Part shown: positions 22,800 through 50,010 of the stretch, one piece after another
Layout: each line of letters opens with the position of its first letter
How positions within the stretch are numbered: the stretch's first letter is position 1
Source of the DNA: Dictyostelium discoideum
Lineage: Eukaryota
Assembly: GCA_000004695.1 (NCBI GenBank)
Contig: CM000154.2
Location: forward strand, 1,920,001-1,984,000
DNA length: 64,000 bases
Reading direction: 5' to 3'
Made by a program: the position numbers and the translations under genes
The notes under the pieces: generated by a model
Seen by the model: the letters and a program-made list of their open reading frames with translations, nothing else
Database searches by the model: none
Told to the model about the DNA's origin: nothing

Positions 22800-24200
22800 T
22801 TAGTTAAAATTTTTGGAAAAAAATTGAGAGAGCTTCGCAGCAATTTCAATAATACTTACAGTCCAGCCTTTAACAAAATTGTAGTCAGGGTAGTTTGCAA
22901 TTGGGCCAATGGCAGTAACTGCTGGTGAAACATCACGAAGAAGGGTAGATGCAACACGTTGAACATCAGCAACTGTGATTTCATTAATACGTGTGTATAC
23001 CTCAAATGGTGATAAACGACGACCTAAAGTTAAAATTTGACGACCAATGCCTTCGCAAACTTTACTGGTACCATCGTATTGCATTAATGTGGTAGCTAAA
23101 AGTTTTTGTTTGTTACGTTCTACCTCATTTTTATTGCAACTAGTTGCGATTCTTTGCCATTCCTTCAACATTTCAGCAACTAAATCATCAACACGTTCTG
23201 GTTGACAAACACCATAGTTACCGAAAAGACCTGTATCTTGATAACAAGTGAAAAAGGTAGAATAAGATTCTGCAAGATCTTCAGTGGCAACAATTTCACC
23301 AAGGTTTGATGCAATGTTTTTACCGGCGGCAATACCACGATTCCAGTTACCAATCATAGTTTGAATTAATTCTAAAACAAAGTAATCTGGATCAGTCCAT
23401 GGAAGGGCTCTAACAGCAACGGCAAAATGAATCAATGGTTGTTCATCATCACGGACACGGAGTTCTGAACCAATAAAGTCATTGGTGATTGCGGCTCTCT
23501 TTACATCTTTAGAAACTTGTGACATCTTTACGTTTGCGAATTTCTCTTTAACTTGTTCAACGAGTTGTTCATGGTTAACTGCACCAGCAGCAGAGATAAC
23601 TAAACGATCACCAGTATAATTTTCATTGATAAATTCTTGAATTTGTTCACGAGTAATTGATTTAATATTTTCGACTGGACCTAAAATGGTTCTACCTAAT
23701 GCTGAACCTTGGAAAGCGGCGGCGTGTAATTGATCAAAGACAACTTCATCTTCTTTGGATTGAATATAATCGTTTTCACTGAGGATGGTGTCACGCTCTT
23801 GTTCAATTAATGAGGTTTCAAATTTACTATTTTGTAAGATATCAGAGAGGATATCAACGGCATTTGGTACGTTATCTTTTAAAACTTTCATGTAGTAAGC
23901 ACTGTGTTCACGACTAGTGAATGCATTTAAACTACCACCCATATTTTCAATTTCAGTTTCAATTGATTGTGGTGTTGGACGTTTGGCTGTACCTTTGAAA
24001 ATCATATGTTCTAAAAAGTGTGCTACACCATTATTCTTATCAGTTTCATAAACTGAACCACTATCAACCCAAACACCTACACTTGCAACTTCACCATATG
24101 TTTGTTCTGTTGCAACTCTAATACCATTTGATAATGTTGTAATTTTAGTTTCTGGTGAAATCTTTAAATATGATGGGTCAACTGTTTTTCTTGAAAATGA
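22800..24200 (-). CDS. mppB: mitochondrial processing peptidase beta subunit / core-1-like M16 peptidase (3' exon(s); 5' presequence exon not resolved)
   Basis: The minus-strand ORF, extended upstream to an AG acceptor at about 24200, encodes RSFSRKTVDPSYLKISPETKITTLSNGIRVATEQ...VGVWVDSGSVYETDKNNGVAHFLEHMIFKGTAKR (the M16 HxxEH inverted zinc motif, HFLEH), then ...LGRTILGPVENIKSITREQIQEF...NYPDYNFVKGW. The codon usage is GC-richer than the neighbours, suggesting high expression. The upstream exon carrying the initiator Met and targeting peptide could not be placed. Confidence 0.85.
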   Translation of the reverse strand, partial: SFSRKTVDPSYLKISPETKITTLSNGIRVATEQTYGEVASVGVWVDSGSVYETDKNNGVAHFLEHMIFKGTAKRPTPQSIETEIENMGGSLNAFTSREHSAYYMKVLKDNVPNAVDILSDILQNSKFETSLIEQERDTILSENDYIQSKEDEVVFDQLHAAAFQGSALGRTILGPVENIKSITREQIQEFINENYTGDRLVISAAGAVNHEQLVEQVKEKFANVKMSQVSKDVKRAAITNDFIGSELRVRDDEQPLIHFAVAVRALPWTDPDYFVLELIQTMIGNWNRGIAAGKNIASNLGEIVATEDLAESYSTFFTCYQDTGLFGNYGVCQPERVDDLVAEMLKEWQRIATSCNKNEVERNKQKLLATTLMQYDGTSKVCEGIGRQILTLGRRLSPFEVYTRINEITVADVQRVASTLLRDVSPAVTAIGPIANYPDYNFVKGWTVSIIEIAAKLSQFFSKNFN

Positions 24201-26095: not shown

Positions 26096-27490
26096 ATGTC
26101 AGAAGCAACTATTGTTGAATTATTAAAAAGATTAGATCAAGCAACTACTCGTTTAGAAGCAGTTGAAAAATCAATTGCATCAGGTGTTGCATCATCATCA
26201 TCATCATCATCACCATCAAGTGGTGCAGCTGGTCCATCATCAGCATCAGTTAAGGAATTCCAAAATTTAGTTGATCAACATATTACACCATTTGTTGCTC
26301 TTTCAAAGAAATTAGCACCAGAAGTTGGTAATCAAGTTGAACAATTAGTTAAAGCCATCGATGCTGAAAAGGCCTTAATCAACACTGCATCACAAAGTAA
26401 AAAACCATCTCAAGAAACTTTATTAGAATTAATTAAACCATTAAATAACTTTGCCGCTGAAGTTGGTAAAATTAGAGATAGCAACCGTTCCTCAAAATTC
26501 TTTAACAATCTCTCTGCTATCAGTGAATCAATTGGTTTCCTTAGTTGGGTTGTAGTTGAACCAACTCCAGGTCCACATGTTGCAGAAATGAGAGGTTCAG
26601 CTGAATTCTACACTAATCGTATCTTAAAAGAATTCAAAGGTGTTAATCAAGATCAAGTTGATTGGGTTTCAAACTATGTAAACTTCCTTAAAGATCTCGA
26701 AAAATATATTAAACAATATCATACCACCGGTTTAACTTGGAATCCAAAAGGTGGAGATGCTAAATCTGCTACACCAGCACCAGCTTCATCAGCACCAGCC
26801 GCCCCAGTTGCACCAGCTGTTTCATCCACTCCAGTTGAATCAAAGAAAGGTCCAGGTTTAGGTGCAGTTTTCGGTGAACTTAGCAAAGGTGATGGTGTTA
26901 CCAGTGGTTTAAAAAAAGTTACCAACGATATGAAATCCAAAAATTTCACCGACAAATCATCAGTTGTTAAAGCTGCTGATACTAAAGTCGCCAAAGTTGA
27001 TGCTCCATCTAGACCAGCCGTTTTTGCTCTCCAAGGTAACAAATGGTCCATTGAATATCAAGTTAACAACAAAGAAATTGTCATTGCCGAGCCAGATAGT
27101 CGTCAAACTGTTTACATTTTCCAATGTGTAAACTCTTTAGTTCAAATCAAAGGTAAAGTTAATGCAATTACTCTTGATGGTTGTAAAAAGACTTCAATCG
27201 TTTTCGAAAATGCCATTTCCTCTTGTGAAGTTGTCAATTGTAATGGTGTTGAAATCCAAGTCACTGGTCGTGTACCATCAATTGCTATCGATAAGACAAG
27301 TGGTTGTCAAATTTATCTCTCTAAAGATTCTTTAGAAACTGAAATCGTCTCTTCAAAATCATCTGAAATGAATGTTTTAATTCCAGGTGCAACTGAAAAT
27401 GATGATTTAGTTGAATTAGCTATTCCAGAACAATATAAAACTTCTGTTAAAGGTAATAAATTACATACTGAATCAACTTCACATATTTAA
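26096..27490 (+). CDS. cap: adenylyl cyclase-associated protein (CAP), single exon, 464 aa
   Basis: Full-length ORF. The N-terminal helical domain starts MSEATIVELLKRLDQATTRLEAVE. A central Pro/Ala-rich linker (ATPAPASSAPAAPVAPAV) is followed by a verprolin-like PGLGAVFGEL and a C-terminal beta-helix (CARP) domain (...NKWSIEYQVNN...VQIKGKVNAITLDGCKKTSIVFENAISSCEVVNCNGVEIQV...). GC-richer codon usage is typical of an abundant cytoskeletal protein. The length matches Dictyostelium CAP. Confidence 0.93.
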   Translation: MSEATIVELLKRLDQATTRLEAVEKSIASGVASSSSSSSPSSGAAGPSSASVKEFQNLVDQHITPFVALSKKLAPEVGNQVEQLVKAIDAEKALINTASQSKKPSQETLLELIKPLNNFAAEVGKIRDSNRSSKFFNNLSAISESIGFLSWVVVEPTPGPHVAEMRGSAEFYTNRILKEFKGVNQDQVDWVSNYVNFLKDLEKYIKQYHTTGLTWNPKGGDAKSATPAPASSAPAAPVAPAVSSTPVESKKGPGLGAVFGELSKGDGVTSGLKKVTNDMKSKNFTDKSSVVKAADTKVAKVDAPSRPAVFALQGNKWSIEYQVNNKEIVIAEPDSRQTVYIFQCVNSLVQIKGKVNAITLDGCKKTSIVFENAISSCEVVNCNGVEIQVTGRVPSIAIDKTSGCQIYLSKDSLETEIVSSKSSEMNVLIPGATENDDLVELAIPEQYKTSVKGNKLHTESTSHI

Positions 27491-30276: not shown

Positions 30277-31758
30277 ATGCAAGAATTACTTTATCAAAAT
30301 TTAAATGATAAAAATGAATTAAAAGTTGAATCACCAAATTTAAATAGTTTTAATAATAGTAATAATAATAATAATAATTATAATAATAATAATAATAAAA
30401 TTTTAAAAATTTTAAAAATAATTTATTATAAATTAAAATATTATTTTAAAAGTTTTAAAATATTTTTAAAAAATAATTTAAAATTAATTTTAAAAAGAAT
30501 TTTTGGTCAATTATGTTTTTTAGCATTAATTTTTGGAATTATTACACCAATTTCAATTTATATTTATAATAATTCACCAAGTAAATATCTTAGTAGTGAA
30601 TTATTATTTTCACCAGAGAATTCAACTTATTCACCAATTTTACAAAATATTTCAATTTATGATCAACAATATTTTCCAAATCAATGGGATGATGTAAATG
30701 TTTTATTGGATACTCATTCACATACTTATTATTCAGACGGTTCATTATCACCAGAAGAGAATATAAAATGGCATATTTTAAATGGATATAATGTTATGTT
30801 TATGACTGATCATAATCAAGTCTATGGTGGATTAGTTGGTATGAAAATTGCACAAGAGAAATATTCCGATAAAATATTAGTTATACCAGGTATTGAGTGG
30901 ACAAATTGTAGATGTCATTTAAATTTAATTGGTATAACAGAGAATGTACCTTTAATAAAGTATCCAACAGATGAAGAAATTAAAAATTTAATTGATTTAG
31001 TTCATTCAAAAGGTGGTCTAGTTATATTGAATCATTATCCATGGAGTAGTTGGTCAGGTTTAGATCAACCTTCAATTCAACAATGGTATGATTGGGGTAT
31101 TGATTTTTTGGAAGTTGCAAATCAATATACATTTGATTATCAAGGTATGATATTTTGTAAAAATCATAATCTTCGTTATGTTAGTGGTTCAGATTTTCAT
31201 TATTATCAAAGAGCATATGCTTGGACAGTTTTTAATATACCTGAATTAGGTAACACTGGTAAAATACCAACTCAAGAAATGGTAATGTCAACCCTCTTAA
31301 ATACTTCAACTAAAACTTCATTTGCTTTTGATCCAGTTGCAAGTAATACAATTATGGTTGAATTTCAATTTACAAAATTTAATCCAACTTGGATTTTCCT
31401 TTCACCTTGGATTTATTTGGGTGGTTTCTTTCATAGTTTTTTCGAATTAAAAAAAGGAATGTATAGTTTTGTTGATGGTAGTTGTACTGGTCAAACTCTA
31501 GATATTCATTCAAAAGAAATTTCTTGTTTAATTTTTTGGATTTTTTTAATTTTCTTTTTAATTCATTTTTTAAATATTTTAATTTTAATTTTAAAAAATT
31601 TTTTATTAAATTTATTTAAAAAAATTAAAAATTTTTTAAAATTAAATAATAAAATTAAAACACCAAAATTTAAAAGTAAAAATTTTAATTTAGATAATAG
31701 TGAAGAATTAGTATCAACAAATGAAATAAATAATTTTAAAATAAGTGAAGATTTTTAA
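30277..31758 (+). CDS. PHP-domain (polymerase/histidinol-phosphatase-like) metal-dependent phosphoesterase with hydrophobic N- and C-terminal segments
   Basis: The LLDTHSHTYYSDGSLSPEE motif (PHP HxH...DG) is followed by MFMTDHN and EVANQYT. Hydrophobic stretches LCFLALIFGIITPISIYIY and CLIFWIFLIFFLIHFLNILILIL flank the domain. The 5' part (KILKILKIIYYKLKYYF...) is AT-rich and may contain an unrecognised intron. Confidence 0.65.
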   Translation: MQELLYQNLNDKNELKVESPNLNSFNNSNNNNNNYNNNNNKILKILKIIYYKLKYYFKSFKIFLKNNLKLILKRIFGQLCFLALIFGIITPISIYIYNNSPSKYLSSELLFSPENSTYSPILQNISIYDQQYFPNQWDDVNVLLDTHSHTYYSDGSLSPEENIKWHILNGYNVMFMTDHNQVYGGLVGMKIAQEKYSDKILVIPGIEWTNCRCHLNLIGITENVPLIKYPTDEEIKNLIDLVHSKGGLVILNHYPWSSWSGLDQPSIQQWYDWGIDFLEVANQYTFDYQGMIFCKNHNLRYVSGSDFHYYQRAYAWTVFNIPELGNTGKIPTQEMVMSTLLNTSTKTSFAFDPVASNTIMVEFQFTKFNPTWIFLSPWIYLGGFFHSFFELKKGMYSFVDGSCTGQTLDIHSKEISCLIFWIFLIFFLIHFLNILILILKNFLLNLFKKIKNFLKLNNKIKTPKFKSKNFNLDNSEELVSTNEINNFKISEDF

Positions 31759-31921: not shown

Positions 31922-33292
31922 TTAATTTAAAATTGATCTACAAGATGGACAACATAAATCTGGATCTTGATAAATTTCTTCACCTGGGAAACAATTAAGT
32001 TTAAAACAATTTGAATGATTACAAGTTGGTCTACATTGTTTACAACATTGATCATCTGGCTGATAAAGTTCATAACCATTTGCACAAAATATTAATGGAC
32101 AGAAAATATTTGAACAATCTTTTTTACATTTTCTTGGACAACATTCACCAATTTCAGTGAATGGTGAATATCCTGGTTGACAGAAAATTGGTGGACAATA
32201 AACCAATTTACAATTTGGAACGCAAGTATTTGGACAACAATCAGTTTCATTTAAAAGTGGAACAAATCCATCTGGACAATTTAATGGTGGACAATGATAT
32301 TGTGGATCACATTTACATGAACTTGGGCAACAATCACCTGGTGCTGTATATGGTAATTTACCAATTGGACAGAAATATGGAGGACATGGTCTATTTGGAT
32401 TACATTGACATGAACTTGGGCAACAATCACCTGGTTTAGTATATGGTAATTTACCATCTGGACAAATGTATGGGAGACATGGTGTACTTGAATCACATTG
32501 ACATGAACTTGGACAACAATCACCTGGTCTTGTATATGGTACTTGACCTATTGGACAGAAATATGGAGGACATGGTCTATTTGGATTACATTGACATGAA
32601 CTTGGACAACAATCACCTGGTTTAGTATATGGAGTTTGACCTTCTGGACAGAAATATGGAGGACATGGTCTACTTGAATCACATTTACATGAACTTGGAC
32701 AACAATCACCTGGTCCTGTATATGGTACTTGACCTATTGGACAGAAATATGGAGGACATGGTCTACTTGGATCACATTTACATGAACTTGGACAACATTC
32801 ACCTGGTTTTGTATATGGTACTTGACCGTCTGGACAAAAATATGGAAGGCATGGTCTACTTGGATCACAAATACATCTACTGGGACAACAATCACCTGGT
32901 GCTGTATATTCTTTATAACCTGGTGCACAACCTAATAAAGGACAAACATTATTTGGTCTACAAACACATTCTGGACAACATTTATCATCAGCTTTAAATG
33001 GAATTTTATCACCTTCACATCTAATGAATGGACAATCAGATGGTGCTGGACAAATTGTACATACTGGACAACATGAATTTGGTGGTCTAATTAAATCATA
33101 ACCTGGTTTACAAACTGGAATTAAACATCTTACATTATTACATTCCAAATCTTGTGCGGCCAAAACTGTTGAATTATCAGTAGATGTTGAATTTAATGGT
33201 GAGCTTTCTTCACCAAATACTTTTAATAAATTATTACTTGAAAATAATAACAAACATATTGAAAATATTATTAAACTATTTAGTTTTACCAT
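31922..33292 (-). CDS. secreted cysteine-rich tandem-repeat protein (about ten 34-aa Cys-rich modules)
   Basis: Signal-peptide-like MVKLNSLIIFSICLLLFSSNNLL. The module CPPYFCPIGQVPYT(K/G/R)PGDCCPSSC(K/Q)C(D/N)P(S/N)RP is repeated with minor variation. No intron is evident. Confidence 0.7.
   Translation of the reverse strand: MVKLNSLIIFSICLLLFSSNNLLKVFGEESSPLNSTSTDNSTVLAAQDLECNNVRCLIPVCKPGYDLIRPPNSCCPVCTICPAPSDCPFIRCEGDKIPFKADDKCCPECVCRPNNVCPLLGCAPGYKEYTAPGDCCPSRCICDPSRPCLPYFCPDGQVPYTKPGECCPSSCKCDPSRPCPPYFCPIGQVPYTGPGDCCPSSCKCDSSRPCPPYFCPEGQTPYTKPGDCCPSSCQCNPNRPCPPYFCPIGQVPYTRPGDCCPSSCQCDSSTPCLPYICPDGKLPYTKPGDCCPSSCQCNPNRPCPPYFCPIGKLPYTAPGDCCPSSCKCDPQYHCPPLNCPDGFVPLLNETDCCPNTCVPNCKLVYCPPIFCQPGYSPFTEIGECCPRKCKKDCSNIFCPLIFCANGYELYQPDDQCCKQCRPTCNHSNCFKLNCFPGEEIYQDPDLCCPSCRSILN
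32190..32900. repeat. about 102-bp tandem repeat (about 7 copies) within the Cys-rich protein CDS
   Basis: The unit ...catgaacttggacaacaatcacctggt...tatggtacttgacc(t/g)(a/t)ttggacagaaatatggaggacatggtctacttggatcaca... recurs with about 90% identity. It generates spurious antisense ORFs 32161..32997. Confidence 0.85.
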
Positions 33293-33363
33293 TTTTTATA
33301 TAAAAAAAAAACAATCACATATATTGTTTTTATTTTAAATTTTTTTTTTTAAATTTTTTTTAA

Positions 33364-33398
<35 letters not shown>

Positions 33399-34613
33399 AT
33401 ATATATATATAATAAAATAAGATAATTAATTAAATAAATAAGATTGATATTTAAATTTGAATTGATTTTAAAAAAAAATAAAATTGTATTTATACTTAAA
33501 AAATTTAAAAGTTAAAATATAAAACTTTGAAATTTTATTTTTACATTTCCAATTATAGTTTTATAAATAGTAATACCATAATTAACCCCCCTTTTAAATT
33601 TGTAAAAATTTTATTTTTTTTTTATTTTTTTTTTTTTTTTGGTGTGGTTTTTTTTTAGATAAGGGAATTTAAAAATAGTAAAAGAAAATTTAATTTTGAT
33701 TATAATTAAAATAGAAAAGAGGTAATGATTAAATATTTTTTTAAATTAATATAAACATTCAAATTTTACTTGGAAAAAAATAATATTAATAAAAAAAAAA
33801 TTAATATTTATTTGTTTTTTTTTTTTTTTTTTTCTATACGATTTAATTTTATTTATTTATAATATGAATTTAGTATGGTAAAAATATAATACTCAAAATT
33901 ACACAATTTGATTTAAAATAAAAAATGAATGTAACCATTATATATATATATATATAATTTTTTTTTTTTTTTTTTTTTTTATAATTATCAATCATTAAAA
34001 AAAAAAAAATTTTTATAGTCTCTAACTTGGATGTTATAGACATAGAGTAATGATTAAAAATTTTTTTAATTTTTTCTCTTTTTTTTTTTTTTTAGAAATT
34101 AGATATTAGTAAAAAAAAGGATCACACCTTTGTTTTTTTTTTTTTTTTTTTTTTTTATTTTTTTTTTTTATTTTTTTTTTAAAATATTAAGAATCAAATT
34201 ATCTTATGTTCATTACAAACCCCCTCAGTTTTTCATTATTTTTTGAACCAAAAAACATCTGTTTAGATTTAAGACCCAAATATAATTTAATATTTCCATA
34301 TTTCAACAAAAAAAAATAAAATAAAAAAAAAAAATAAAATTCTAAAAATGATAATATTAAAATCAAATCTATTTCTATAAAAATTCAAATTTGAAATAAA
34401 AAATAATAAAAAAGGAATTTTTTTTAAAAATCTATTATCAAAAAACAAAAAATTGTATATTTAAATATATGAAAAAATTTTTTTTTTTCTTTTTTTTTTT
34501 TTTCAACATATACATAAAAAAAAAAAAAAAAAAAAGATATATATCTCTAAAATTAATCAAATTATTTATTATTTTTTATATTTTAATTTTTAAAATTAAT
34601 TTATTTTTTTAAT

Positions 34614-35245
34614 ATGGCAACTATTATGGATTTTTTATTACGTCAAGGTTTAAATGTTCCAGTTGGATATTCATCAGTTGGTAGTCAATCAACATCGTCA
34701 TCATCAACTTCAATTCCAATGGATAGTTCATTAAGAAATGTTGATTATTTACCAGAAATTGATATCACTGAAACCAAAGATTCTTTAATTATTGAATGTG
34801 AATTGGCTGGTGTATTAAAAGAAGATATCTCTATTGAAGTAGCTGAATCTAAATTAATTATCAAAGGTGATAAAAAGAGATATGCCTATAGAAGACCAAA
34901 TCAATCTTGGTCATATGATGATAAAAACCAAATTTCACAATCCTCTAAAATCTCTGAACAATCAAGTGGAGCTGATCAATGGCAACATAGTAATGATCCA
35001 AATGTAGATTCTCAATCAAATCTAAATATGCCATCATCTAAACAAGATCCAAATGTTCAACAATCTCGAGTTGGAAATGTACCAGAATCAAAAGTAAATA
35101 GAAATGACACTACTGAACCTAATTTACCATCTCAACCTTTCCAATCTGATATGAATCCATCATCATCATCATCATCAATTGAAAAACAACAAATCCCAAA
35201 TGTTAGTCATCCATCATTTCAACAATGGTCTGGTCAACCACAACC

Positions 35246-35315
<70 letters not shown>

Positions 35316-36782
35316 CCATTTGAACAACAATCACAACAACAATCAAATTTAAATGATCCTATGCAAAGACAAGATTCAAAAGAAATTTCTCAACCATCTG
35401 AATTACAAAGATCAAATTTTGGCGAATCAAGTGTAAATCAACCATCCTCTTCTTCTTCTTCTTTACTTGGATCAGATAATAGTCAATCAAATGTTGATTT
35501 ACCATCCTCAAGATCTGTTGAACCACAAAGACCAAATGTTAGTGATTCAGATACTAACCAAGGATATTCACAATCTGTAGAACAAAGACTTGGTAATACT
35601 CAACAGCAATCATCACAATTACCACAACAACAACAACAACAACAAGATCAACCAAGATCAAATGTAAATGAACCTTCTTTTCAACAATGGTCTTCTCAAC
35701 AAGATCAACATAGATCAAATGTTAATGATCCTTCTTCTCAACAATGGTCTTCTCAACCATCTGAACAACAACAAAAATCAAATATTAGTGAATCAAATGT
35801 TAGTCAACCATCATCTACACAATTTGTTGAAAATATTCCAAGTAATTTAGAACAATTACCTCAACAAGAGCAACAAAGATCAAATGGAAATGAACCTTCT
35901 TCTCAACCATGGTCTTCTCAACCATCTGAACAACAAAGATCCAACATAAATGAACCTCCTTCTCAACAATGGTCATCTAAACAAGATCAACAAAGATCAA
36001 ATGTTAATGACCCTTCTTCTCAACAATGGTCATCTCGACCATCTGAACAACAACAACAACAACAAAAACCAAATATTGGCGAATTAAATGTTAATCAAGC
36101 ATCATCTGATGTATGTTCTGGTCCATCAGTATCAGAAACTAGAAAACAATTTGAAGAAAACTATCTTAATGAACAACAAAGACAACCACAACAACAAGAT
36201 TTAAGTTCATTACATAAAGATGAAAAGAAACCATCGTCATCATCAGTTTCTCAAACTGCTCAATTATTTGAACCAAATAAACGCGAAGAACAAAGAAAAG
36301 ATAAACCAGAAGAAAAGAAATTCGATTCTGATATAATTAAATCATCTGAACCAACAAATGTTGAATCAATTGAAAATAAAGATTGGATACAACAAAAACC
36401 ACAAGAACAACAACAAGAGCCAAGAGAAATTTCTTCAACAGAAACATCAAATCTTCAACAACCAATGGAAAGACAAATCAATACTGAAACTCCAAAAGAA
36501 CAACAAGTATCACCTCAACAACAACAACCTCAACAACAACAACAACCTCAACAACAACAACAACCTCAACAACAACAACCTCAACCTCAACAACAACAAC
36601 AAGAAAGAAAATATATCTCTGAAAGAACTTTTGGACATTTTAAGAGAACAATGGACCTTTCCAAGATGTTATATCGTTTAAATTTAAGAGAAGAAGTTCA
36701 AACTCATTTCGTTAATGGTCTTTTAATCATTATACTCAATAAGAAACCATTTGAACCATCAATTAAAATTCCAGTAAATTAA
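34614..36782 (+). CDS. small heat-shock protein (Hsp20/alpha-crystallin domain) split by an about 560-aa Q/S/N-rich low-complexity insertion
   Basis: The N-terminal part [44 protein letters not shown] matches the first half of an alpha-crystallin domain (DxxETxDxxxxxxxLPGxxKEDIxVEVxxxxLxIxGE). The C-terminal part [44 protein letters not shown] matches the second half (RxERxxGxFxRxFxLP...IxAxxxNGVLxIxxPK). The insert contains repeated RSNVN(D/E)[14 protein letters not shown] units and (CAA)n. Confidence 0.7.
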
Positions 36783-47178: not shown

Positions 47179-48306
47179 ATGATTGATTCAGAGATAGAGT
47201 TAAATAAAGTAATAGTAGTACCATTAATATCAAAAGATTCATTAGATATTAATGATGCAAAAAATTACTATGGAACCGAGTTACACCCAAATCAACCAAT
47301 TCCAACAATAGTTTCAACTCAATCTGAAGTGAATTCTTTAGTTAATCAAAAATCTGGTAATAATCAACAATTGGCCAATGAAGAAAGATTAGTTATATTA
47401 TTAAAACAACAAGAGGTAGAAAAAGATAAAACATTTGATACAAATAAATATTTTAACGAATTATCAACAGATTTATTTGGAAAGAATTTAATTCATACTG
47501 AAGTAATTAGTTCAACACAAGATATAATGTTAAAATATTTAACATATACTCGTCAAGGATTAGTAATGATTGCAGATCAACAAACCGATGGTAGAGGACG
47601 TGATGGAAATAAATTCTTGTCTCCATTGGGATGTTTGTTAATGTCATTCAAATGTAAACAAACTGATTGTAACAAATTACCATTCCTTCAATATTTGACT
47701 GGTATGGCAATGGTCGAAGCAATTCACTCTTTCCCAATTGCATCTGATTTAAATCTTAGTTTGAAATGGCCAAATGAAATCTTTACTAAGGAAGCAGGTA
47801 TTAAGCTTGGTGGAGTCCTCTGTGAACCAAAATATCTTAACAATGAATTTGATGTTGTCATTGGTGTTGGTGTTTATCTTTCAAATTCAAATAATCCATC
47901 AACAACTGTAAATCAATTAATTCACCAGAAACAACAACATGGATCTTCTTTATCATCAACAACAACAAGTACTGATATTCCAATTTATATTAATAGAGAA
48001 GAATTGGTTTCAAAATTCTTTAACAAATTCGAACCAATGTTTATGGAGTTTACAAGAGATGGCTTTAATGCAGATCTTGAAAATAGATACACTGACTTAT
48101 GGATGCATACAAATCAAATTGTAAAAGTAAAAGAAAGAGATTACCATCATGTTAAAATCATTGGTATTTCTGATAGAGGTTTCCTTAAAGTTATTGAATG
48201 TGATGCTGGTGGTAATTCATCTCCAAACTCTCAAATCGTTGAACTAAACCCAGAAAGTACTTCATTTGATATTCAAAATTTAATTTTAATGCAAAAATCA
48301 CAATAA
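47179..48306 (+). CDS. biotin--protein ligase (BirA/holocarboxylase-synthetase catalytic domain) paralog 1
   Basis: VMIADQQTDGRGRDGNKFLSPLGCLLMSF matches the BPL GRGRxGxxWxSPxG biotin-binding loop. LKWPNEIFTKEAGIKLGGVLCE matches BirA KWPNDLYL...KLAGILVE. Confidence 0.8.
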   Translation: MIDSEIELNKVIVVPLISKDSLDINDAKNYYGTELHPNQPIPTIVSTQSEVNSLVNQKSGNNQQLANEERLVILLKQQEVEKDKTFDTNKYFNELSTDLFGKNLIHTEVISSTQDIMLKYLTYTRQGLVMIADQQTDGRGRDGNKFLSPLGCLLMSFKCKQTDCNKLPFLQYLTGMAMVEAIHSFPIASDLNLSLKWPNEIFTKEAGIKLGGVLCEPKYLNNEFDVVIGVGVYLSNSNNPSTTVNQLIHQKQQHGSSLSSTTTSTDIPIYINREELVSKFFNKFEPMFMEFTRDGFNADLENRYTDLWMHTNQIVKVKERDYHHVKIIGISDRGFLKVIECDAGGNSSPNSQIVELNPESTSFDIQNLILMQKSQ

Positions 48307-48882: not shown

Positions 48883-50010
48883 ATGATTGATTCAGATATA
48901 GAATTAAATAAAATAATAGTAGTACCATTAATATCAAAAGATTCATTAGATATTAATGATGCAAAAAATTACTATGGAACCGAGTTATACCCAAATCAAC
49001 CAATTCCAACCATAGTTTCAGCTCAATCTGAAGTAGATTCTTTAATTAATCAAACTTCTGGTAATAATGATGAAGAAAGATTAGTTTTATTATTAAAACA
49101 ACAACAACAAGAGGTAGAAAAAGATAAAACATTTGATACAAATAAATATTTTAACGAATTATCAACAATTTTATTTGGAAAGAATTTAATTCATTCTGAA
49201 GTAATTAGTTCAACACAAGATATAATGTTAAAATATTTAACATATACTCGTCAAGGATTAGTAATGATTGCAGACCAACAAACCAAAGGTAGAGGACGTG
49301 GTGTAAATAAATTCTTGTCTCCATTGGGATGTTTGTTAATGTCATTCAAATGTAAACAAACTGATGGTAATAAATTACCATTCCTTCAATATTTGGCTGG
49401 TATGGCAATGGTCGAAGCAATTCACTCTTTCCCAAGTGCATCTGATTTAAATCTTCGTTTGAAGTGGCCAAACGATATCTATAGTAATGAACCAGGTATG
49501 AAAGTTGGTGGTGTCCTCTGTGAATCAAATTATCTTAACAATGAATTTGATGTTGTCATTGGTGTTGGTGTTAATCTTTCAAATTCAAATAATCCATCAA
49601 CAACTATAAATCAATTAATTCAAAAGAAAAAATATGGATTTTCATCATCATCATTGGCAACAAGTACTGATATTCCAATTTATATTAGTAGAGAAGAATT
49701 GGTTTCAAAATTCTTTAACAAATTCGAACCAATGTTTATGGAATTTACAAGAGATGGCTTTAATGCAGATCTTGAAAATAGATACACTGACTTATGGATG
49801 CATACAAATCAAATTGTAAAATTTAAAGAAAGAGATAACCATCATGTTAAAATCATTGGTATTTCTGATAGTGGTTTCCTTAAAGCTATTGAATGTGATG
49901 CTGATGGTAATACATCTTCTGACTCTGAAACCGTTGAGCTTCACCCAGATGGTACTTCATTTGATATTCAAAACTTAATTTTAATGCAAAAATCACAACA
50001 ACCAAAATAG
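48883..50010 (+). CDS. biotin--protein ligase paralog 2 (tandem duplicate)
   Basis: About 85% amino-acid identity to paralog 1, including GRGRGVNKFLSPLG and KWPNDIYS...KVGGVLCE. About 20 nt of conserved 5' flank (aaacatatacaATGATTGATTCAGA) is shared. Confidence 0.8.
   Translation: MIDSDIELNKIIVVPLISKDSLDINDAKNYYGTELYPNQPIPTIVSAQSEVDSLINQTSGNNDEERLVLLLKQQQQEVEKDKTFDTNKYFNELSTILFGKNLIHSEVISSTQDIMLKYLTYTRQGLVMIADQQTKGRGRGVNKFLSPLGCLLMSFKCKQTDGNKLPFLQYLAGMAMVEAIHSFPSASDLNLRLKWPNDIYSNEPGMKVGGVLCESNYLNNEFDVVIGVGVNLSNSNNPSTTINQLIQKKKYGFSSSSLATSTDIPIYISREELVSKFFNKFEPMFMEFTRDGFNADLENRYTDLWMHTNQIVKFKERDNHHVKIIGISDSGFLKAIECDADGNTSSDSETVELHPDGTSFDIQNLILMQKSQQPK

Follow-up and report, generated by a model that had tools for sequence, protein, structure and literature searches.

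A single-exon gene on chromosome 5 of Dictyostelium discoideum, missed wholly by standard Pfam scanning and without Pfam annotation in the gene index used, encodes a tandem array of 13 small six-cysteine modules, each of which corresponds, as judged from its sequence, to the C-terminal half of a VWC domain and is probably held together by three disulfides. The gene lies on the minus strand at positions 31922 to 33292 of the stretch analyzed here (the window: 64,000 nucleotides, positions 1,920,001 to 1,984,000 of the forward strand of contig CM000154.2, assembly GCA_000004695.1). The reading that we favor, with moderate confidence, is that the product would be a secreted, N-glycosylated array of 13 half-VWC modules, locked by disulfides into a rod, with a structural, cross-linking or adhesive role in the extracellular matrix during multicellular development.

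The gene and its modules

The complete coding sequence (31922..33292, minus strand) is an uninterrupted open reading frame (ORF) of 456 amino acids plus a stop codon, found at exactly the positions at which the original prediction, a model's reading of the DNA letters, had placed a secreted repeat protein. The ORF list is backed by the D. discoideum assembly GCA_054883475.1, where a 456-aa single-exon gene is called at the locus with a product identical to that of the window, and by gene callers on further D. discoideum assemblies, which give the same single-exon 456-aa product; orthologues and substitution rates, described below, add to this. The protein contains 79 Cys (17.3%) and 78 Pro (17.1%), and the predicted mature polypeptide is acidic (~47 kDa, pI ~5).

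When the protein is cut after each CC-x2/3-C, 13 modules result, spanning aa 49-451 and separated by linkers of 1-3 aa. The unit is 31 aa, or 93 bp, with six Cys in the pattern C-x4/5-C-x4-C-x12-CC-x2/3-C; in an alignment of the 13 modules the six Cys columns are invariant, and one Gly and one Pro are nearly so. The Cys-rich motif that had drawn attention to this gene is indeed present (for example CPPYFCPIGQVPYTGPGDCCPSSC), but the dimensions first ascribed to the repeat need revision: a unit of ~102 bp and 34 aa measures 93 bp and 31 aa, eight Cys per module become six, and about ten modules become 13.

At the DNA level, Tandem Repeats Finder (TRF) reports an array at 32303..32909 (no strand assigned) with a period of 93 bp (6.5 copies, 86% matches, score 857) and a period of 186 bp (3.2 copies, 90% matches, score 968), a strength far above chance level. 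Only modules 4-9 are near-identical in DNA (82-96% pairwise), and since the odd modules 5, 7 and 9 are mutually 91-96% identical, the central array consists of three copies of a two-module, 186-bp unit. The expectation of ~90% DNA identity among repeats is thus borne out in the array, where TRF finds 86-90% matches, but not beyond modules 4-9.

Three zones follow from these comparisons. Modules 1-3 (aa 49-140; 32873..33148, minus strand) are diverged six-Cys units that have one-to-one orthologues, with 84.6-94.5% DNA identity between lineages; modules 4-9 (aa 141-326; 32315..32872, minus strand) form the homogenized center, defined by TRF and pairwise DNA identity; and modules 10-13 (aa 327-451; 31940..32314, minus strand) are again diverged, with 3-residue linkers and 85-96% identity between lineages. 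Modules 1-3 and 10-13 share 54-67% DNA identity with the central modules. Within the center, D/E-type modules (CPDGQ, CPEGQ or CPDGK) alternate with I-type modules (CPIGQ or CPIGK), and modules 4-9 are joined through one residue (C-x-C). The protein ends in a tail, RSILN, followed by the stop codon (31922..31939, minus strand); this tail leaves no room for a membrane anchor or a glycosylphosphatidylinositol signal, and a Kyte-Doolittle scan finds no second hydrophobic segment in the protein. Read in all six frames, the rest of the 64-kb window contains no further copy of the module.

Each module matches half of a VWC domain

The C-terminal signature of VWC domains, C5-x4-C6-x4-C7-x(11-13)-C8C9-xx-C10 with PGxCCPxC, is found with six invariant Cys in all 13 modules. 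The full ten-Cys pattern, C1...W...C2xxC3xC4...C5...C6...C7...C8C9xxC10, is not; the six Cys present are C5-C10, and the clip, the conserved Trp, the CxxCxC motif, Cys1 and the sheet of subdomain 1 (SD1) are absent from every module. On this pattern we assign each module to the C-terminal half of VWC, that is, Cys5-Cys10, comprising subdomain 2 (SD2) and the preceding Cys.

Pfam provides the independent link: its VWC family matches fragments containing modules 10-13 or 12-13 (E=0.002-0.005, 17.5-18.8 bits), always at positions 28-57 of 57, and by this measure modules 12-13 are the most VWC-like. The same scan of the whole protein and five fragments gave no TIL, EGF, Dicty_CTDC, Dicty_spore_N or spore-coat match. 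Among the families proposed for checking in the original prediction, TIL, EGF and Dicty_CTDC therefore failed to match, and VWC did match, by its C-terminal half only and below threshold; the further remark that the module does not resemble the 24-aa repeats of EcmA and EcmB agrees with the lack of a Pfam Dicty_CTDC match at E<=10. A candidate IGFBP N-terminal domain (E=0.029-0.15, 13-15 bits against a 28-bit cut-off) was rejected; its match straddles a module junction.

Profile comparisons place the module within the domain. Aligned by hhalign with 13 bona fide VWC domains, the 13 modules fall on positions 30-59 of 59 (probability 96.2%, E=2.1e-9), and a hidden Markov model (HMM) of the full VWC domain, run unfiltered, gives exactly 13 domain matches in the protein, all on positions 28-59 and none on positions 1-27. 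Because the VWC reference set used for both was taken from a protein found by the module profile itself, these results show how the module maps onto VWC and are not independent measures of significance. Searches of PDB sequences, by phmmer with the protein and by hmmsearch with the module profile, returned nothing meaningful. A domain survey that includes D. discoideum lists VWC as specific to opisthokonts or metazoans (PMC2770060), and literature searches on Dictyostelium with VWC or VWFC found no account of such a protein.

An AlphaFold2 model of modules 5-6, built from 79 aligned two-module sequences, has a mean predicted local distance difference test (pLDDT) score of 86.1 and a predicted template modeling (pTM) score of 0.53, and contains almost no regular secondary structure. 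The VWC SD2 has been described as an irregular, ring-like, disulfide-stabilized unit (PMC6270503), and the predicted model fits that description. The disulfides of the CV2 VWC1 domain are C1-C4, C2-C8, C3-C5, C6-C9 and C7-C10 (PMC6270503). By analogy with solved VWC domains, Cys2-Cys5 and Cys3-Cys6 of the module would be expected to pair, leaving Cys1-Cys4 by elimination, because their partners in the full VWC domain lie in the missing half. We also sought natural losses of a Cys pair among 436 module instances; the deviations were alignment truncations and are uninformative on pairing. After entry into the endoplasmic reticulum and removal of the signal peptide, three disulfides would lock each module, for a putative 39 in the whole protein, and with linkers of 1-3 residues the array would form a stiff rod, resistant to proteases and rich in Pro and Tyr.

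The N-terminus and secretion

The first 27 residues (MVKLNSLIIFSICLLLFSSNNLLKVFG; 33212..33292, minus strand) resemble a signal peptide, with a basic n-region followed by an uncharged hydrophobic core of ~15 residues. This is the only strongly hydrophobic stretch of the protein, the 11-residue Kyte-Doolittle mean reaching 3.27 at residues 7-17 against no more than 1.82 anywhere else, and it is kept in all orthologues. A core of ~15 residues appears typical of a cleaved signal peptide and not of a membrane anchor; candidate cleavage sites, judged by eye with the -3/-1 rule, lie after S18/S19 or after G27. The predicted combination of a Cys-rich modular protein and a signal-peptide-like N-terminus is in this respect supported, and similar N-termini were observed in some relatives that carry six-Cys arrays.

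Between the signal-peptide-like segment and module 1 lies an acidic linker rich in Ser, Thr and Asn (aa 28-48; 33149..33211, minus strand), in which a sequon scan finds two of the four N-glycosylation sequons of the protein (N34 and N40); the other two, N348 and N425, are in modules 10-13. All four remain sequons in every orthologue despite residue changes (NET to NAT; NHS to NST or NSS), and those of the linker are retained or more numerous in every orthologue. Taken with the N-terminus, this pattern suggests that the protein is probably secreted and N-glycosylated.

Orthologues, selection and concerted evolution

Syntenic loci were located by way of the neighboring PHP and CAP proteins in six further genomes: D. 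discoideum ACTFIR and ACTFIW, D. cf. discoideum ACTFIY and ACTFIZ, D. citrinum, and D. dimigraforme. In all six, an intact orthologue is flanked by the PHP gene and by a gene for a Q-rich protein with an HSP20 domain, and the reading frame is open in seven genomes that represent at least three species. The ratio of nonsynonymous to synonymous substitution rates (dN/dS) is 0.08-0.46 on the cleanly orthologous terminal modules and 0.19-0.27 over the full length of equal-length sequences, and every module Cys is retained in six of the seven sequences, the exception being C266S in ACTFIY. The gene is accordingly real and under purifying selection, and is neither a chance ORF nor a decaying repeat. 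In the ACTFIY orthologue (L003:7605-8975, minus strand), codon 266, in module 8, encodes Ser in place of Cys (T>A), and 78 Cys are left, so that within the module the number is odd; unless the assembly is wrong here, the substitution would be genuine and would leave a cysteine of module 8 free.

The terminal modules are one-to-one orthologous, with 84.6-96.5% DNA identity between lineages, and the center has a different history. For six of the seven central modules of D. citrinum the nearest module is in its own gene (five at 92-99% identity, the sixth at 85%), and the flanking modules of the same gene show 86-88% identity between species (12-14% difference). The I-type modules 5, 7 and 9 of D. 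discoideum are likewise nearest each other; a 3-aa deletion in the first loop is common to three alternate modules of D. dimigraforme; and species-specific residues (CPNGQ, CPNDQ, VPIT) are common to modules inside one gene. These patterns indicate that the central modules evolve concertedly in two-module (186-bp) units, through a homogenization by unequal exchange or gene conversion that is confined to the central six or seven modules. The original prediction had offered recent expansion or concerted evolution as explanations of the repeat identity, and the within-gene nearest modules of D. citrinum and the spread deletion of D. dimigraforme bear this out. Ratios of dN/dS between paralogous central modules range from 0.29 to 1.23, with one pair undefined (dS=0); on 93-bp units these ratios are too noisy to support a claim of diversifying selection.

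Changes in module number and indels between species also fall in the central array. Thirteen modules are present in the four D. discoideum genomes, ACTFIY and D. dimigraforme, and 14 in D. citrinum and ACTFIZ; judging by how the module types are ordered, the number probably changed by one module at least twice independently. The five closest genomes all have a coding sequence of 1371 bp and no indels, with 39-50 substitutions for ACTFIR and ACTFIY. Copy number had been thought likely to vary between strains, but the four D. discoideum genomes and one of D. cf. discoideum all have 13 modules, and differences appear only in more distant lineages. The gene shows clearly how stable end modules, each conserved in its own right, can flank a concertedly evolving center, and its layout leads to a functional prediction: the terminal modules would carry sites that bind specific partners, and the center would act as a repetitive spacer or multivalent surface that sets length or valency.

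Relatives in other taxa

Searches of word-indexed sequence collections for homologues were nearly empty, giving one weak match, then seven short ones, then a clam family. The module profile, run against 1.84 billion representative proteins, gave 58 matches at E<=0.001, of which 35 carry Pfam VWC. The best match is a protein with a Kazal domain and 20 VWC domains, in which the module aligns with Cys5-Cys10 of each VWC. Most of the 58 are arrays of a stand-alone six-Cys module, with linkers of 2-9 residues and no SD1 or upstream CxxCxC, and the modules of these relatives also match Pfam VWC at positions 28-57 only; the Dictyostelium array belongs with them, having short linkers and no SD1 half between modules. 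Named examples come from a clam (Mya arenaria XP_052805051), a chytrid (Rhizophlyctis rosea HK097_000109) and a mushroom (Mycena latifolia FB451DRAFT_1371370). The clam relative combines four six-Cys modules with one full VWC domain and is named 'DDB_G0274171-like' or 'Y4171-like' by NCBI. According to profile matches, Kazal, Kunitz, TIL and pacifastin domains stand beside the module in other organisms, and in the clam relatives it is accompanied by WAP and pacifastin domains.

Bacterial sequences contain the module as well. Metagenomic lipoprotein-like bacterial proteins (P0001, P0018 and P0026) carry a six-Cys PGxCCPTC module with Gly/Ser-rich linkers, and a single-protein query found relatives of such proteins encoded in two Polyangiaceae metagenome-assembled genomes (MAGs; L009:2001-2132 and L010:2001-2183). 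A VWC-half-like module therefore occurs in bacteria. A 2573-aa protein with Big_13 (bacterial Ig-like) domains, P0033, contains six modules (CDVGTCPPFSC...PGDCCPTSC) with single-residue C-x-C junctions and a CCPTSC ending; it is the closest architectural match to the central Dictyostelium array.

A free-standing VWC-type module outside opisthokonts is informative about the assembly of the animal VWC domain. One speculative scenario, which we think probably incorrect but worth stating, is that the six-Cys module existed long ago as an independent extracellular fold, before animals arose (it occurs in Amoebozoa, chytrid and agaric fungi, molluscs and Polyangiaceae), and that the animal VWC domain arose by its fusion with the SD1 (fibronectin-I-like) half. 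If so, the Dictyostelium protein would be one of a small number of arrays outside animals that consist of the ancestral unit alone. Alternatively, soil amoebae and myxobacteria may have exchanged the module horizontally. The half-domain in an amoebozoan and in bacteria is a modest extension of the known VWC range.

Upstream sequence and neighboring genes

Two G/C-rich boxes sit upstream of the gene inside otherwise A/T-run intergenic DNA. The first, CCACACC (33641..33647, minus strand), is a candidate developmental promoter element of the CA-rich/G-box type ~355 bp upstream of the ATG, conserved in orthologous promoters: it occurs at a similar distance in ACTFIR, ACTFIW and D. citrinum, and as variants in the other genomes. 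The second, GGGGGGT (33585..33591, minus strand), which reads GTGGGGT in the other genomes, lies ~299 bp before the ATG and may be a G-box half-site; its context, aaatttagaaGTGGGGTta, is conserved in the D. discoideum strains, D. cf. discoideum and D. dimigraforme. Both boxes appear to resemble the CA-rich/G-box (GBF/CAE) elements of post-aggregative genes, and by that analogy they hint at possible developmental expression of the gene. An (AATA)n microsatellite (33362-33441) lies between the boxes and the ATG.

The gene adjoins DDB_G0288779, with cap close by: the ORF at 30277-31758 (plus strand) is identical to AX4 DDB_G0288779 / XP_636513, and that at 26096-27490 encodes the adenylyl cyclase-associated protein CAP. 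The ORF at 22800-24005 (minus strand) is part of mppB (DDB_G0288777), which encodes the mitochondrial processing peptidase beta subunit (Peptidase_M16), and the local gene order is therefore mppB, cap, DDB_G0288779, the array gene and the Q-rich/HSP20 gene. GC content across the window is 13-30%; the array gene, at ~26%, is near the top of this range and above its AT-rich flanks.

The Q-rich/HSP20 gene is the divergent neighbor on the other side (34614-36782, plus strand), encoding a 722-aa Q-rich protein with a C-terminal HSP20 domain. It contains a (CAA)n run (35235-35342) and coding tandem repeats of 57-60 bp (35625-35993), and its product differs in length among genomes (722, 653, 628, 629 and 713 aa), whereas the length of the array protein is constant among D. 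discoideum genomes. Farther along the window, adjacent genes at 47179-48306 and 48883-50010 (both plus strand) encode 375-aa proteins that are 85% identical to each other; the first of them, the one scanned, matches Pfam BPL_LplA_LipB (biotin/lipoate protein ligase), and the pair looks like a recent tandem gene duplication.

Discussion

Several observations weigh against the proposed secreted matrix rod. Pfam scanning of the whole protein finds no family at E<=10; the VWC scores of the fragments fall under the 27.6-bit gathering threshold. Both the disulfide pairing and the rod shape are features that we infer. The exact protein, its orthologues and the Q-rich neighbor are not present in the word-indexed protein collection searched; a low-complexity filter is suspected there, and the lack of dictyostelid matches carries no meaning. 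Finally, literature searches under guessed neighboring dictyBase, UniProt and RefSeq identifiers found nothing on the gene and no record of its expression, localization or a mutant.

Some of these points would suit a repeat expansion without function, a pseudogene or an artefact of annotating AT-rich DNA, since the protein is of low complexity, has no whole-protein Pfam match and is absent from protein collections. Against such an origin, which we find scarcely credible, stand a frame intact in seven genomes of at least three species, dN/dS of 0.08-0.46, a Cys framework kept save for the one Cys-to-Ser change, conserved sequons and synteny, and a GC content of ~26%, above that of the flanks. 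The significant profile similarity to VWC domains could instead be taken to mean that the protein is a genuine VWC/chordin-type growth-factor binder, working as animal BMP regulators do. Dictyostelium, however, is not known to have TGF-beta/BMP ligands. The parts of VWC that bind BMPs, the N-terminal clip and subdomain 1 (PMC6270503), are moreover missing from every module, and because the missing half of the domain is the binding half, ligand binding of the BMP type is unlikely and we give this explanation very little weight.

Two further possibilities keep the protein outside the cell and give it another task. A bacterivorous amoeba might use it in defense, whether to act against microbes, to bind bacteria or to block proteases with several inhibitory heads: many inhibitors are built from small disulfide-rich modules in tandem, and the module accompanies Kazal, Kunitz, TIL, pacifastin and WAP inhibitor domains in other organisms. 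Co-occurrence of domains is not function, however, and the VWC SD2 has no known inhibitor activity; the central modules are homogenized, unlike those of diversified multi-headed inhibitors, and dN/dS is below 1 across orthologues, with no consistent excess between paralogous modules. We consider a defensive role improbable. An extracellular modulator of developmental cell-cell signaling or adhesion, like stcC (DDB_G0274171), is somewhat easier to accept but still unlikely; here the protein, as a soluble multivalent rod, would adjust post-aggregative development by binding adhesion or recognition proteins on the cell surface, or their ligands. The conserved upstream CCACACC and GTGGGGT boxes, which appear to resemble post-aggregative promoter elements, would suit this role, and the NCBI name of the clam protein, 'DDB_G0274171-like', implies that the module occurs in the Swiss-Prot protein DDB_G0274171. 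That gene is stcC, in which an insertion suppresses the developmental arrest of tgrC1-null cells (PMC4404348). It is only this database name, however, that places the module in stcC, and the report of the suppressor (PMC4404348) does not describe the stcC protein; nothing ties the array gene to Tgr signaling, and the stcC probe primers do not lie in the 64-kb window.

We retain the secreted, glycosylated matrix rod as our preferred reading; the matrix, spore-coat or adhesion role offered in the original prediction is likewise putative. Overall, the work provides a useful annotation and a small evolutionary point and no major surprise; if the presumed stcC link holds, the module family may matter for Dictyostelium multicellular development.

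Comparison with known systems

In D. discoideum the plausible functional analogues are EcmA and EcmB, built from 24-aa Dicty_CTDC repeats, and the spore-coat proteins SP60, SP70 and SP96, all of which are secreted and have tandem Cys-rich repeats. In sequence these proteins are unrelated to the array protein: the Dicty_CTDC repeat is 24 aa against 31, and the Cys pattern is different. The product of stcC comes from the same organism and putatively contains the same module, as the NCBI name of the clam protein suggests; stcC lies elsewhere in the genome and is known only through a genetic property (PMC4404348).

The VWC/chordin-like domain (PF00093), as in Crossveinless-2 VWC1 (PDB 3BK3) and VWF C4 (PDB 6FWN), has the Cys5-Cys10 spacing C-x4-C-x4-C-x12-CC-x2-C, like the Dictyostelium modules, and shares with them the PGxCCPxC signature and its G and P positions elsewhere. 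Tandem repetition is common to both, as is a lack of most regular secondary structure, and the Dictyostelium modules would, like VWC, be rich in disulfides and lie outside the cell. The differences are as clear. A VWC domain has ten Cys, whereas the Dictyostelium module has six, lacks the N-terminal half and falls below the Pfam threshold; the equivalents of C5 and C8 in the modules are without their VWC partners and must pair otherwise; and the listed host range of VWC is opisthokont or metazoan, whereas the present host is an amoebozoan.

Further counterparts are the stand-alone half-VWC proteins of the clam, the chytrid, the mushroom, the Polyangiaceae MAGs and metagenomes, which have the same module, short linkers and a layout of putative signal peptide plus array, with 30-56% sequence identity between their modules and that of Dictyostelium. 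Their module number is usually 2-9, and Kazal, Kunitz, TIL, WAP or full VWC domains are often interspersed, whereas the Dictyostelium protein alone has 13 modules and a near-identical, Pro/Tyr-rich central array (CPPYFCP.GQVPYT). Placed among these systems, the array is a sparsely distributed, unnamed variant of the well-known VWC domain, and is neither a full VWC domain nor a member of a known Dictyostelium repeat family.

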